Shown here piece by piece: positions 1,591 to 5,052 of a stretch of DNA of 5,166 bases. Every line of letters begins with the position of its first letter. Position 1 is the first letter of the stretch. The position numbers and the translations under genes were made by a program. This DNA comes from a plasmid. A model generated the notes under the pieces. The model was not told the DNA's origin and did no database searches. It saw only the letters and a list, made by a program, of their open reading frames with translations. The DNA is taken from the NCBI RefSeq assembly GCF_055900595.2, contig NZ_JBVWEU010000008.1; one strand, given 5' to 3'.

Positions 1591-1989
1591 ATGCGCATCA
1601 GCAACATCGAATGGCTGAAGAAACGGATCGGATTCATCAGGAAGCTCGGAGAACAGACCGCACGACAGAGACAGATTATTGACCTGATCGACAACGAAGC
1701 CGGACTCACAGAACAGGAACGCAAACTTCTCCACGTACTGGCAACAGCGGAAAAAAACGACTTACAGGCACAGGAGAGCGAACGAAAACAGGCGGTCCAA
1801 AAACGAATCGAGGGAAAAAAACAACGACGGGAACGCAATCACCGGCTCTTTCTCGCGGCTGGGCTACTGATCGAAGCAGGACTGGTAGACACAAAAACAG
1901 GCGAGCTATGCTATAAAAAAGACAGGATATTACAGGCACTTAAGGAACTTAAGTACGATCTGGAGACATCCCCAAACCCAGACGCGTAA
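1591..1989 (+). CDS. mobC: MobC-like relaxosome accessory protein (132 aa)
   Basis: ATG at 1591 with GGGAG SD (1576-1580) 10 nt upstream; TAA at 1987-1989. Divergent from mobA across oriT, as in RSF1010. Segment KKQRRERNHRLFLAAGLLIEAGL resembles the conserved basic/hydrophobic core of RSF1010 MobC as recalled. The track ORF 1471..1989 (GTG start, no SD) is probably an artefactual N-terminal extension. Confidence 0.65.
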   Translation: MRISNIEWLKKRIGFIRKLGEQTARQRQIIDLIDNEAGLTEQERKLLHVLATAEKNDLQAQESERKQAVQKRIEGKKQRRERNHRLFLAAGLLIEAGLVDTKTGELCYKKDRILQALKELKYDLETSPNPDA

Positions 1990-2139: not shown

Positions 2140-2197
2140 CTGCTCAAAAAGACGCCAGAAAGGCGCTGTTATCTGATATAGGCTTATTTGGTCTACT
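2140..2197 (-). other. ori: ColE2-type origin of replication (Rep-binding / primer RNA site)
   Basis: Directly 3' of rep and overlapping its stop codon. The rep-sense strand reads TAGACCAAATAAGCCTATATCAGATAACAGCGCCTTTCTGGCGTCTTTTTGAGCAGC, which matches my recollection of the ColE2-P9 minimal origin (AGACCAGATAAGCC..TATCAGATAACAGCGCC..TTTGGCG). Confidence 0.6.
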
Positions 2198-3107
2198 CTA
2201 CGAGACCTCGTTTTTTCAGTTGGTAATACCAGGCGCGACTGATCCCTAATGCCTCCCACGGTTTCAGCGTGCGTGCAGATGTAGCTACTGTGCTGCGCTT
2301 AGACTTAGAACCGCCCTTGCGACCGCGTGCAGCCTGAATTTCTGGCGTGTGCGTATCAGCCACATACTGTGCGAAAGTTTCCGGCGTGAAGTTCCTGTGC
2401 GTGTATTTCGCAATGCTCTTGCCAATAGCCCGACATTCAGCCAGTGAAAGCGGAACGGGAAGCGATGCATTGTACATTTCGACACGCTGGATCACCGCTT
2501 CAAGCCACTGTGAGAACGCTGGCCAGCCCTGACGAATCGCCCTGTAAGCCCATTTGCGCGTCATTTCGAACAGGTGGCAGTTTCGCCCCATCCCGTAATG
2601 TTTATCGATGCTACGACGCTCTGAGGCGCTCAAATCGAGATAATCAGCCAGTTCATCGAGGGTATAGGCTTCCTCGCGCCACTCCATCACCAGCCATTCC
2701 AGGTGGAACGGATTTTTGCAAATCAGGCCGCTGTAGTTCACATCCGCACAAAGTTTCTCACACAGCGAACGTTCAACCGCTGCGGCATATTTCAGCGCCT
2801 TAACCGAGGCATCAGGCGCGGTTCTCACGGCGATGTTGAGTGCGTAGAGCAGGTGAGCGTGTCCGTTCACAGGATTTTTAACGGTGATGTTCGGCGCGGG
2901 AGCGTTCCGGTCGCTCCAGTCAATCGCAGCCCCCTCGCGGTCAACGTCAAAAACCAGCCAGAACTGTGCATGAGGCTGGTTCTGCTGGATATACCGTGCA
3001 AGAAGCGCGCGCCCTTTGCCGGAGATACGAAGGCCGAAAGCGAGATCATCCGTGTGATAGGGACGGTGGGGTAAATTTTCTTCGAAGTATTGAAGCGCGG
3101 CGCTCAT
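2193..3107 (-). CDS. rep: ColE2-type replication initiator Rep (primase-like, 304 aa)
   Basis: 304-aa ORF, ATG at 3107..3105 with AAGGA SD 10 nt upstream. Sequence (MSAALQYFEENLPHRPY..., FDVDREGAAIDWSDRNAPAPNITVKNPVNGHAHLLYAL, GKSIAKYTHR) matches my memory of the ColE2/ColE3 Rep family. Origin-like sequence lies immediately downstream, as in ColE2. Confidence 0.85.
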   Translation of the reverse strand: MSAALQYFEENLPHRPYHTDDLAFGLRISGKGRALLARYIQQNQPHAQFWLVFDVDREGAAIDWSDRNAPAPNITVKNPVNGHAHLLYALNIAVRTAPDASVKALKYAAAVERSLCEKLCADVNYSGLICKNPFHLEWLVMEWREEAYTLDELADYLDLSASERRSIDKHYGMGRNCHLFEMTRKWAYRAIRQGWPAFSQWLEAVIQRVEMYNASLPVPLSLAECRAIGKSIAKYTHRNFTPETFAQYVADTHTPEIQAARGRKGGSKSKRSTVATSARTLKPWEALGISRAWYYQLKKRGLVE

Positions 3108-3124
3108 GTGTTACGATTCCTTCC

Positions 3125-3203
3125 AGGTTATCGACCGACATCGCCCCTGTATTTTCGTGAAAGTCTTGGCGGATAGACACGAATTTCAGGGGCGTTTGTT
3201 TTT
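3125..3203 (+). ncRNA. Putative antisense RNA (RNAI-like) complementary to the rep mRNA leader
   Basis: Bipartite hairpin: outer stem CGCCCCTG (3142-3149) / CAGGGGCG (3187-3194), inner stem TTCGTG (3154-3159) / CACGAA (3178-3183), followed by TTTGTTTTT (3195-3203) on the + strand only. Candidate + promoter TTGAAG (3090-3095), 16-nt spacer, TGT-TACGAT (3109-3117) overlaps the rep start. The 5' end is a guess. Confidence 0.4.
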
Positions 3204-3405: not shown

Positions 3406-3532
3406 CGAAAGCGATGTGCGATCGGTTTCGTGCGTTCTGAACACCGAACGGCTCAAAACGACAAGTTTTCTCCCCTGGTGCGTGGCGCTCTGACGGGGTT
3501 TCCTGTTTCCAAACTTCACATCTCGCCAGGAC

Positions 3533-3556
3533 AAAAAAAAACCGACCTGGGGTCGG
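3533..3556 (-). terminator. Rho-independent terminator (minus strand)
   Basis: Minus strand: CCGACC-CCA-GGTCGG followed by 9 T (seen on + as A9 then CCGACCTGGGGTCGG). Confidence 0.55.
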
Positions 3557-3691
3557 TGGCAAGAATCAGAGTCTATGGGAAATATTTTAGTTATCGGATG
3601 CTCAATATTCACAAACGCAAAAAATGCCTCAGTGATGCCCTAAAACAACCTTTCCAGAAGGAGTCCGCGCTTTACGATGCACGGAAGAGAT

Positions 3692-3713
3692 AAAAAACCC
3701 CACAAAAGTGGGG
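3692..3713 (-). terminator. Rho-independent terminator (minus strand) at the backbone/AT-rich boundary
   Basis: Minus strand: CCCCAC-TTTT-GTGGGG followed by TTTTTT. Confidence 0.5.
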
Positions 3714-3940
3714 AACCAAGAGAAACAACAATTACAGGTTGTTGGTTGTGTTCGAACAACGATGAAGTAGCTACGCTAAATAATAATTACCGTACAGGCC
3801 CTACATATTCAACACTAAATTTAAGATCCTGACGAAGGATTTATAAATGCACGAAAACACATAGACAGACAAATTCACTAAATTCATACACAAAAACAAG
3901 TGTAGTTTTCTAAGTAAATTAGATTCGACAACCAATTAGT

Positions 3941-3949
3941 TTATCCACA
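3941..3949 (+). promoter_or_regulatory. DnaA box consensus (TTATCCACA)
   Basis: Exact 9-mer TTATCCACA inside the A/C-rich tract. Only one copy seen, so function is unproven. Confidence 0.3.
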
Positions 3950-4097
3950 TCGCATTCCACTCTTGCTACACCAATCACATTTCTTGATATGTAATAGCAG
4001 AAAAAATAAAACCAGACACCAATAGACCAAAAAACAAACATTCAACAAGAAACATTTTGAACAATATCACAAAACTGTCACAACCATCATCAGACTT

Positions 4098-4126
4098 TTG
4101 AAAAAAACTGGTTGCTGTTTTATAAA
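4098..4126 (+). promoter_or_regulatory. Candidate sigma70 promoter (TTGAAA, 17-nt spacer, TATAAA)
   Basis: -35 TTGAAA at 4098-4103, 17-nt spacer, -10 TATAAA at 4121-4126. About 105 nt upstream of the + strand terminator at 4212-4236. Confidence 0.35.
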
Positions 4127-4132
4127 AGCGAC

Positions 4133-4237
4133 TGTAACAACCTCCACTCTATAGTTCCATTAGTTTAAAGTGTCACACAAACTGAGCATCCATTTGTTTT
4201 CCTTACTTTTGCCCCTGTATTCCAAGGGGTTTTTTTA
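4133..4237 (+). ncRNA. Candidate small RNA, module 1 (promoter to terminator, about 105 nt, no ORF)
   Basis: Predicted start about 7 nt after the -10 at 4121-4126. Contains ACACAAAC, then TTTTCCTTAC (4197-4206), then terminator hairpin. No ATG in the interval. Confidence 0.3.
4212..4236 (+). terminator. Rho-independent terminator (plus strand), module 1
   Basis: CCCCT (4212-4216) / AGGGG (4225-4229) stem with 8-nt loop, followed by TTTTTTT (4230-4236). Preceded by TCCTTAC at 4200-4206. Confidence 0.5.
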
Positions 4238-4467
4238 TAACTTAAAGATTAGCACACCACACAAAAACAATAAAAAAAAACGACAAGTTATACAATAAAA
4301 CCAGTACCATCCATACAGCTAATTACATATAAATACTATTAAACCATCTGGACATTAAAAATAAACTCTTATAACATAAAATTAATGCGGTTCCGGTACC
4401 ATATGTCAGGGATAATGTGCAAATGGAGGTATCGGAACTGCATTTCAGTTCATTATTAATTAATGAC

Positions 4468-4494
4468 AAAAAAAAACCTCTGCGAGCGCAGAGG
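4468..4494 (-). terminator. Rho-independent terminator (minus strand), module 3
   Basis: Minus strand: CCTCTGC-GCTC-GCAGAGG followed by 9 T (+ strand A-run 4468-4476). Preceded on the minus strand by TCCTTAC (+ coordinates 4503..4497). Confidence 0.65.
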
Positions 4495-4526
4495 GGGTAA
4501 GGAATGTTCCCGGTCATAATATGTCG
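4468..4526 (-). ncRNA. Candidate small RNA, module 3 (about 60 nt)
   Basis: Runs from the candidate minus-strand promoter (4533-4561) to the terminator at 4468-4494. Contains ATTCCTTACCCCC immediately 5' of the hairpin. Confidence 0.3.
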
Positions 4527-4532
4527 ATAGTG

Positions 4533-4561
4533 TTTATATACATACAGAACAAGAACAACAA
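4533..4561 (-). promoter_or_regulatory. Candidate sigma70 promoter on minus strand (TTGTTG, 17-nt spacer, TATAAA)
   Basis: Minus strand -35 TTGTTG (+ 4561..4556), 17-nt spacer, -10 TATAAA (+ 4538..4533). Directs transcription toward the 4468-4494 terminator. Confidence 0.35.
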
Positions 4562-4713
4562 CCAGCCAACTAATAAATATTTTATTTTTTAGAGCTGAAA
4601 CCTTAAAGCTCACTTCCATTCCATACATTGTTATAAACCTTATGTTGAAAACTGAAAGTAAGTACGGCAGACTTATTAAGTTGCGTGCAGTCTTTTCACG
4701 TTATACAAACAAG

Positions 4714-4770
4714 AACACCTGCGAAGTTATTTCTCCTTACATATCCCCCTATGCCAACGGGGGATTTTTT
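4714..4770 (+). ncRNA. Candidate small RNA, module 2 / possible leader of the 69-aa ORF
   Basis: Weak promoter TTGCGT (4681-4686), 15-nt spacer, TATACA (4702-4707). Transcript would contain TTCTCCTTAC (4731-4740), then ATAT, then the 4743-4770 hairpin and T-run. Start is uncertain. Confidence 0.25.
4743..4770 (+). terminator. Rho-independent terminator (plus strand), module 2
   Basis: ATCCCCC (4743-4749) / GGGGGAT (4759-4765) stem with 9-nt loop, followed by T-run to 4770. Preceded by TCCTTAC at 4734-4740. Confidence 0.6.
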
Positions 4771-4842
4771 CTGGTTCACTAACGCATAAATAATAGTGAC
4801 ACCCTATCATTCACAAACCGTGATAATATAAGGATTATCATC

Positions 4843-5052
4843 ATGGCAAAATTAGGTGAAAACACCCCACATATTATCGATGCTACTGTAGATTTTATGG
4901 CATCAAGCCAGGCATTTCGTGAGTATCTGAAAAAACTTCCCCCTGATAACACAATACCGCCAGCTCTTACTGATGAGCACGTACCGTTATATATACGAAG
5001 GCTGGAATACTATCGTCTGCTTTATCGACCAAAGCAGACAGAATCATATTGA
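4843..5052 (+). CDS. Hypothetical small protein (69 aa), not recognised
   Basis: ATG at 4843 with AAGGA SD (4830-4834) 8 nt upstream; TGA at 5050-5052. Balanced codon usage, hydrophilic, no transmembrane segment. I do not recognise the family ([18 protein letters not shown]...). Competes with a minus-strand frame that is open from the window end to a TAA near 4966. Confidence 0.45.

Follow-up and report, generated by a model that had tools for sequence, protein, structure and literature searches.

The 5,166-base stretch analysed here (the window; contig NZ_JBVWEU010000008.1) is one complete small mobilizable plasmid of the Col156/ColE2 type. About 240 PLSDB records of 5.16-5.17 kb, typed as Col156 / MOBQ, match the window with at least 99% identity; pJJ1886_2 of strain JJ1886, an Escherichia coli of sequence type 131 (ST131), is an example. 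MOBQ4-2/Col156 plasmids are ColE2-like and usually carry colicin operons (PMC6856555). This plasmid has no colicin operon, and its place is occupied by an AT-rich stretch (30-36% GC, versus ~53% in the rest of the window) for which RefSeq has no annotation. Our subject is a protein-free island at ~3690-4800 (~1.1 kb, or ~1.1-1.3 kb if a fifth unit is counted). It contains three modules, numbered 1 to 3, in which the heptamer TCCTTAC precedes a terminator-like hairpin, as well as a related module 0 and a structured element, islX (Table 1). We read the three modules as the putative 3' ends of separate short non-coding transcription units, within a cluster of four to five, and give this reading an even chance.

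Table 1. Features of the island and of the remaining plasmid; promoter-like sites and RNA lengths are predicted (nt, nucleotides; aa, amino acids; ORF, open reading frame)
Feature	Position	Strand	Remarks
Fifth terminator unit	3533..3600	-	T8 3533-3540, stem 3541-3557, CU tract TTCTTGC 3565-3559
Module 0	3692..3788	-	T6 3692-3697, stem 3698-3713, CU tract CTCTTGG 3722-3716; putative ~95-nt RNA
Module 0 promoter-like site	~3795-3825	-	TTGAAT-17-TAATTA, just upstream
Module 1	4098..4237	+	putative ~105-nt RNA, ~4133 to 4237
Module 1 promoter-like site	4098-4103, 4121-4126	+	TTGAAA, 17-nt spacer, TATAAA; read by eye
Module 1 5' part	4134-4195	+	near-invariant, includes ACCUCC
Module 1 heptamer	4200-4206	+
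Module 1 terminator stem	4211-4230	+	then T7
islX	4349..4449	+	promoter-like TGGACA 4349-4354, 17-nt spacer, TAACAT 4372-4377
islX hairpin	4385-4400 paired with 4428-4443	+	16 bp; 27-nt loop with conserved CAGGGAU
Module 3	4468..4657	-	T9 4468-4476, stem 4494-4477, heptamer 4503-4497
Module 3 internal promoter-like site	4560-4555, 4537-4532	-	TTGTTG, 17-nt spacer, TATAAA; putative ~60-nt short form
Module 3 upstream promoter-like site	4657-4652, 4635-4630	-	TTTCAG, 16-nt spacer, TATAAC; putative ~155-nt long form
Module 3 conserved block	complement of 4593-4610	-	AGCTTTAAGGTTTCAGCT
Module 2	4681..4770	+	putative ~55-60-nt RNA
Module 2 promoter-like site	4681-4686, 4702-4707	+	TTGCGT, 15-nt spacer (suboptimal), TATACA; putative
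Module 2 conserved core	4719-4734	+	CTGCGAAGTTATTTCT
Module 2 heptamer	4734-4740	+
Module 2 terminator stem	4746-4763	+	then A + T6 (to 4770)
yibT-like ORF	4843-5052	+	69 aa; paralogue of chromosomal yibT, 77% DNA identity
orf177	spans window ends		177-aa ORF
mobA	488-1414	-
mobC-like gene	~1591-1989	+	399-bp coding sequence annotated in relatives
rep	2193-3107	-	ColE2-type; start at 3107
ColE2-like origin	~2150-2195		presumed, apparently just downstream of rep

TCCTTAC occurs exactly three times in the window, as the initial annotation had claimed, and a terminator-like hairpin follows each copy 2-5 nt downstream on the same strand. The stems have 6-7 bp (5 bp in module 2) with 4-5 GC pairs, and all three qualify as intrinsic terminators. 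The module sequences had also been given correctly, except that in module 2 an A intervenes between the stem and T6. The number of copies alone is unremarkable, because 357 heptamers are present at least three times in the window. Shuffling predicts 0.39 copies, and 2 of 200 shuffles reach three. The non-random feature is the placement of the heptamer, not its count. The region has six terminator-like sites versus 1.1 expected, and the probability that three copies of one heptamer fall within 6 nt upstream of six sites, (36/10332)^3, is by our estimate ~4e-8, or ~1e-5 after correction for the 357 repeated heptamers.

A related tract is found directly 5' of the stem at two further strong terminators outside the coding sequences, both on the minus strand: CTCTTGG in module 0 and TTCTTGC in the fifth unit. 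The relaxed motif YTC(C)TTRS precedes five of the five strong terminators, where five of its nine window copies are located. The combination of CU tract and terminator is real and wider than the three modules. A chance co-occurrence of a short motif and terminators would be in line with the many recurrent heptamers and with the shuffles that give three copies. Against it stand the corrected placement probability, the relaxed motif at every strong terminator and the juxtaposition of motif and terminator in diverged lineages, and we consider it highly improbable.

Relatives of the island were gathered from PLSDB, species-representative genomes and metagenomes (71 contigs). The element order, module 0 (-), module 1 (+), islX (+), module 3 (-), module 2 (+), is kept in four lineages at 67-88% identity, which marks ~3690-4800 as a syntenic unit. 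The four settings are the 5.2-kb plasmids, an 88% variant (L003), plasmids of 7.4 kb, and large IncF plasmids of Shiga toxin-producing (STEC) and enterotoxigenic (ETEC) E. coli. A search for the modules in other plasmids had been proposed with the initial annotation, and the syntenic copies in the 7.4-kb and IncF plasmids are its outcome. On IncF plasmids the island is 67-83% identical, reaches two and a half copies and is located close to sta1, ehxA and a gentisate operon. In L010 (NZ_CP012501.1) the copies lie at 6849-7968, 16708-16956 and 18827-19947, and L008, L011 and L012 also belong here. In these large plasmids the island occurs as two complete copies in inverted orientation plus a partial one (islX and module 3); they bracket the gentisate-degradation operon, and each is within ~2 kb of a sta1 enterotoxin gene. 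The arrangement looks like an inverted segmental duplication.

The island is present in 345 of 5426 complete E. coli genomes (~6%), always on plasmids and at no chromosomal place. Neither a chromosomal homologue nor a known chromosomal small RNA (sRNA) was found in these genomes. A dispersed repeat (REP/ERIC/MITE-like) was rejected on the same absence of chromosomal places, and 313 kb of flanking plasmid DNA yielded no further module members. A phage origin was likewise rejected, with no phage match. Across the species-representative genomes, the module 3 signature pattern hit Escherichia-type plasmid sequence only, one hit being a mislabelled contaminant scaffold. This scaffold (L013, NZ_WMZH01000013.1; 1247 bp), from an assembly labelled 'Streptococcus parasanguinis', matches window 3507-4755 at 99.5% identity and almost certainly represents contamination by this E. 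coli plasmid. A Succinivibrionaceae match of the genome scan (L014) was discarded as a chance pattern match.

Conservation is block-wise and ends at the terminators, a pattern that matches RNA genes, with no coding capacity. Compared with the IncF copies, the spacers reach 41-46% identity and are essentially unalignable, whereas the blocks upstream of the terminators reach 63-90%. The 5' part of module 1 is 100% identical in L003 and 90% in IncF, and the body of module 2 shares 82-86% with IncF. Module 3 compares with IncF at 88% in the heptamer zone and at 63-65% in the body, and module 0 ranges from 77% to 87% across lineages (77% versus IncF). Every lineage has kept the terminators of modules 0, 1 and 3, with changes in loops and stems. 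No ORF of at least 12 aa is preserved across lineages in any frame of the island. For example, a 101-aa minus-strand ORF through the module 3 terminator has lost its start codon in L003 and has many stops elsewhere. The longer ORFs of the window likewise lack a start codon in L003. A type I toxin-antitoxin system was rejected too: the hydrophobic ORFs 4070-3977 and 4041-3921 (-), near module 1, contain stops in L003 and cannot be aligned with the IncF copies.

Modules 1 and 3 have convergent terminators, and the slot between them (4238-4380) is poorly conserved. In the 7.4-kb plasmids (L004 491-3001) and in cointegrates it is filled with an ArsR/SmtB regulator and a flavin adenine dinucleotide (FAD)-dependent oxidoreductase; the insertion of both genes in the 7.4-kb plasmids lies precisely between the terminator of module 1 and islX. 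The units could be an array of terminators that insulates rep, mob and this slot from read-through. The CU tract would then reflect descent from a duplicated cassette, with no RNA function, and the conserved blocks would be promoters or other DNA-level signals. This agrees with the way modules 1 (+) and 3 (-) converge on the occupied slot, with the module 0 and 3557 terminators pointing toward rep, with a cross-module similarity confined to the motif plus terminator, and with the poorly conserved heptamer zone of module 1. However, conservation in the 60-100 nt upstream of each terminator is much higher than in the spacers, and one stretch of 62 nt there is 90-100% identical. This counts against bare terminators, which would not need such blocks. 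Furthermore, the terminator stems are unlike between modules, and the upstream core of module 2 is kept where the hairpin is lost. All in all, we hold an insulator array to be unlikely.

If the units are RNA genes, each would start with a sigma-70-like promoter, followed by 25-100 nt of conserved, mostly unstructured RNA, then a pyrimidine-rich tract (UUCCUUAC, CUCCUUAC, CUCUUGG or UUCUUGC), and would end in an intrinsic terminator with a tail of 6-9 U. RNAs of ~55-60 nt with a common layout would come from module 2 and the short form of module 3, and RNAs of ~95-105 nt from modules 1 and 0. The promoter-like sites are consensus-level candidates, and the scan tool rejects a -10 hexamer ending in A. 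Hexamer spacing is kept across lineages for module 1, module 0, the short form of module 3 and islX. The module 1 site, TTGAAA-17-TATAAA, reads TTGCAA/TATAAG in the IncF copies. The counterpart of the module 0 site in L010, TTGAAA-17-TAAATT, is called by the scan. The internal site of module 3 reads TTGAAA-17-TATAAA in IncF and TTGTCC-16-TATAAA in the 7.4-kb plasmids. The A(C/T)ACAAAC that had been noted as common to modules 1 and 2 is, in module 2, the -10-like TATACA; module 3 has the -10-like TATAAA as the corresponding element.

Module 0, absent from the initial annotation, is present in all island lineages, and GTTGTTTCTCTTGG, directly 5' of its terminator stem, is invariant in 12 distinct variants. 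The fifth unit repeats the layout: its stem is preceded by GATTCTTGCC, with conservation over ~40 nt of upstream sequence, and a convincing promoter was not found. The unit is common to the 5.2-kb and 7.4-kb plasmids and missing from the more than 1500 small plasmids that have segment 3300-3475 in common. This segment is probably a cer-like backbone region; within the island itself, no XerCD cer core matched at up to 3 mismatches. Module 3 also holds two overlapping tiny ORFs on opposite strands. One (4517-4546, -; MYINTIDIL*) has kept its frame and TGA stop in three lineages despite a 3-nt indel, and the other (4503-4529, +; MFPVIICR*) follows GGGGGTAAGGA. The peptide sequence is conserved in neither.

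The three modules had been described as paralogous. Each module profile finds, after its own module, the remaining two as next-best matches of the window, in register, and does not match the other terminators. The cross-matches between modules 1 and 2 are borderline (E 0.009 from 1 to 2 and 0.043 from 2 to 1), those involving module 3 are not significant (E 0.29-0.55), and the similarity between modules is limited to ~35-60 nt. Because these scores are marginal, the modules can be said to share a motif and a layout, with uncertain descent. Common descent appears plausible for modules 1 and 2 and is unproven for module 3.

The strand on which the heptamer acts can be approached through its substitutions. 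Two fall within the motif, in module 3 of L003 and in module 2 of IncF, and both are C to U (UCCUUA to UUCUUA). Since such changes keep the pairing to GGA via G-U and destroy the GGA of the opposite strand, they give a small hint, from two events only, that constraint may act on the heptamer strand. The module 3 stem of L003 contains a C-to-U change that creates a U-G pair on the minus strand only, which fits the orientation given by the T-run.

islX shows a strand preference as well. Its 16-bp helix is kept in eight distinct variants, with a consensus energy of -26 kcal/mol. One pair is compensatory (A-U to G-C); at five others the only changes are to G-U or U-G, and these would turn into A-C mismatches on the minus strand. 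Because of this variation, which is almost entirely wobble, islX reads as a plus-strand RNA or a single-stranded DNA element directly beside module 3. CAGGGAU, conserved in its loop, is a CsrA-like GGA motif. The element may form the 5' end of a plus-strand RNA that is antisense to module 3; alternatively, it may serve as a priming site on single-stranded DNA after mobilization. islX and module 3 travel together, as seen in the separate partial copy of L010 and L012. The 3' arm of islX is deleted in L011 and L012.

These features bear on a possible function of the opposite strand, in which GUAAGGA would be a Shine-Dalgarno (SD) sequence or a CsrA-type GGA following a hairpin in longer RNAs, for example in a plus-strand RNA running from islX through 4477-4503 to the module 2 terminator. 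Module 3 and modules like it would then be cis-antisense regulators of these RNAs, and the heptamer simply the complement. The plus-strand wobbles of islX just upstream of the complement of the module 3 hairpin, the movement of islX and module 3 as a unit, and the heptamer zone being the best conserved part of module 3 all agree with this. Moreover, an ATG follows GGGGGTAAGGA in three of four lineages, and the complement of module 1 reads GTAAGGAAAACAAATG. The resulting ORFs, however, have only 4-14 codons and differ in sequence and length (MFPVIICR, MNTPVRILS, MIQSE; MDAQFV, MILS). In addition, L003 has lost the ATG, no start codon stands at a usable distance on the complement of module 2, the GGA of the opposite strand is destroyed by the C-to-U changes, and the T-runs set termination on the heptamer strand. 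An opposite-strand function is, in our view, rather improbable.

The yibT-like ORF, which is the plasmid's only protein gene outside the backbone, follows module 2 after 72 nt. Module 2 could be the 5' leader or attenuator of this gene and not a free-standing RNA. It has this position in all small plasmids. The hairpin of module 2 is lost in the IncF copies and in those adjacent to a type VI secretion system (T6SS), while the core CTGCGAAGTTATTTCT and the T-run stay. There the same promoter and core continue into another long conserved non-coding stretch, as a leader might. On the other hand, the upstream sequence offers no G-run for an antiterminator with the CCCCC arm, a separate promoter-like GTGACA-18-GATAAT is placed between the terminator and the ORF, and a leader would account for one module only. 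Homology with chromosomal yibT begins only ~40 nt upstream of the ATG, and further upstream the sequences are not alignable. A leader role is accordingly a poor candidate, of low probability. An attenuator or riboswitch leader was rejected as such, given the missing G-rich segment and the occurrence of module 2 without a yibT-like gene. The core was present in 71 metagenome contigs. The stretch that follows the hairpin-less promoter and core is ~300 nt long (L050 6060-6760; L056, L073, L081, L067), differs from the island sequence, and has a strong SD and a short ORF (MISFSGLLFIKNP...) at its end. It occurs on IncF plasmids, has no RefSeq annotation, and in one contig adjoins the T6SS genes tssB/tssC.

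The initial annotation knew of no described system with this layout, and the searches agree. Rfam has no significant match in the island, with a best score of 17.6 bits against a gathering score of 47. The literature found on pIGJC156, Col156, pJJ1886_2 and the plasmid yibT comprises typing and announcement papers only, with no RNAs from the region. The best sub-threshold Rfam match of the module 3 short form is CyaR (RyeE, RF00112). The whole model aligned, with GGAAC, UCCUUA and terminator in register, and the match was not significant (E 0.7-4), so that membership in this family was rejected. CyaR resembles the putative module RNAs: it is a short sRNA of enterobacteria with an intrinsic terminator at its end and a C/U-rich anti-SD-like motif (..CCUCCUUA..). 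Work by Papenfort in 2008 and by De Lay and Gottesman in 2009 reportedly found this motif to pair with ribosome-binding regions, e.g. of ompX. Unlike the modules, CyaR is chromosomal and CRP-dependent, and its seed is in a hairpin loop. The CyaR-like GGAAC of module 3 is not kept in other lineages.

ChiX (MicM/SroB), a constitutive Hfq-binding sRNA of ~80 nt, has the layout proposed here for modules 1-3. It is said, after work by Figueroa-Bossi in 2009 and by Overgaard in 2009, to repress chiP through a C/U-rich region near the terminator that covers the ribosome-binding site. In contrast to the modules, ChiX is chromosomal and single-copy, with a known target and decoy, and there is neither sequence similarity nor an Rfam match. 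The Hfq sites of ChiX include the poly-U tail after the terminator (PMC5006887), and the U tails of 6-9 in the island are compatible with Hfq binding.

Plasmid-encoded RNAs such as ColE2 RNAI, FinP, CopA and Sok resemble the modules in being short and terminator-ended, and they block the translation of plasmid mRNAs. These RNAs are cis-antisense to their targets, whereas the modules are over 590 nt away from rep, pair with the initiation regions of rep, mob and the yibT-like gene no better than background and occur on unrelated IncF replicons; nor is a toxin ORF present. ColE2-type rep is controlled by RNAI (PMC6856555). The modules were rejected as such a copy-control RNA, given their positions from 3692 onward, the absence of excess pairing and their occurrence on IncF plasmids without this rep. 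The rep leader (3072-3195, -) gave a sub-threshold Rfam match to PK-repBA, the pseudoknot of the repBA regulatory region (26.2 bits versus a threshold of 45, E 0.011), presumably the structured rep 5' untranslated region targeted by the ColE2-type RNAI. Finally, ordinary terminators share with the modules the GC-rich stem-loop, the U tract and the occurrence as convergent pairs flanking a cargo slot, and differ in having no conserved upstream blocks of 60-100 nt and no shared CU-rich tract.

We favour a cluster of sRNA genes because of the promoter-like sites, the ORF-free bodies, the U-tailed terminators, the block-wise conservation and the strand-specific wobbles. The suggestion of short RNAs made in the initial annotation is partly supported, by the conserved ORF-free blocks, the terminators and the upstream promoter-like hexamers, all of them read from the DNA. 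The chance that the units are functional RNA genes is, in our estimate, about evenly divided. If they are real RNAs, they would most likely be plasmid-borne base-pairing sRNAs without an earlier description, since the arrangement of a C/U tract next to the terminator resembles ChiX and, in a loop, CyaR. Acting most likely as enterobacterial base-pairing sRNAs, they would use the single-stranded C/U tract, and in module 1 also the invariant 5' ACCUCC, to pair with purine-rich ribosome-binding regions. The targets may be mRNAs of the host or of co-resident plasmids, and the long U tail suggests a dependence on Hfq. Together with the plus-strand element, the cluster would lie in a mobile protein-free island that appears to be the main cargo of this ColE2-type cryptic plasmid.

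Several results weigh against the cluster of RNA genes. The heptamer is not uniformly conserved across lineages. In module 1 it is kept in three lineages, and a 7-nt deletion in IncF leaves CTCTTAC or TTTTTAC; its zone, at 47% (versus 90% for the 5' part with ACCUCC), is conserved worse than any other part of the module. Module 2 reads TCCTTAT in L003, TCCTTAA in the T6SS-adjacent lineage and TTCTTAA in IncF, where the hairpin is lost as well. Module 3 has TCCTTAC in Col156 and IncF, TTCTTAC in L003 and TCCTTAT in the 7.4-kb lineage, and the last positions of the heptamer are variable among lineages. The predicted accessibility of the heptamer in module 1 and the short module 2 (probability of being unpaired 0.54 and 0.57) speaks for the cluster, whereas in module 3 the heptamer is predicted to be paired (0.01). 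RNAalifold supports terminators and small stems only, with no compensatory double changes in modules 1 or 3, and by scan the promoter-like sites are no more numerous than in shuffled sequence. A complementarity of six to seven nt to an SD sequence cannot by itself give specificity. Accordance with the initially proposed occlusion of SD sequences was not found among the translation-initiation regions of the plasmid itself: pairing of the module RNAs with those of rep, mobA, mobC, the yibT-like gene and orf177 was no better than shuffled (z -1.6 to +1.9). The proposed mimicry of the 16S rRNA 3' end also fell away, with modules 0, 1 and 3 at background versus shuffles, and module 2 (ACCUGCG...UCCUUA) at p ~0.02 and not the best site in the window. 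The initial annotation had placed the heptamer at the centre of the function, a role that is weakly supported at best, given its alterations in modules 1 and 2 of IncF and its poor conservation in module 1. That the heptamer itself is the seed seems doubtful to us. Two further pairings were rejected. A long-range UAAGG:CCUUA helix in module 3 appears in the minimum free energy structure, but has 5 bp, is not in the RNAalifold consensus and has an uncompensated G-to-U change in L012. A 17-nt complementarity between modules 0 and 3 (inverted repeat I4) is likely a low-complexity chance match, because it is lost in the IncF copies.

The importance of the island comes mainly from the abundance of the plasmid (few small plasmids are more common in pandemic E. 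coli lineages such as ST131), from the lack of a known benefit to the host, and from the mobility of the island between small cryptic and large virulence plasmids. A conserved, mobile, protein-free island with RNA-gene-like units is a candidate for such a benefit. If the units are only terminators, the island would be an ordinary insulated cargo slot. If they are RNAs, they would bring plasmid-borne cases into research on trans-acting sRNAs, in which chromosomal ones prevail. The diverged copies near sta1 and ehxA on STEC/ETEC plasmids hint at a relevance for virulence plasmids. A bolder version, which we regard as fairly unlikely, is that the island is a mobile sRNA cassette, whose four to five RNAs, expressed from a plasmid of 10-15 copies, would reprogram the translation of the host by occluding specific SD sequences, or would titrate a chaperone such as Hfq. 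Such a cassette would be a selectable cargo, and could explain both the wide spread of this cryptic plasmid and the island copies on STEC/ETEC virulence plasmids.

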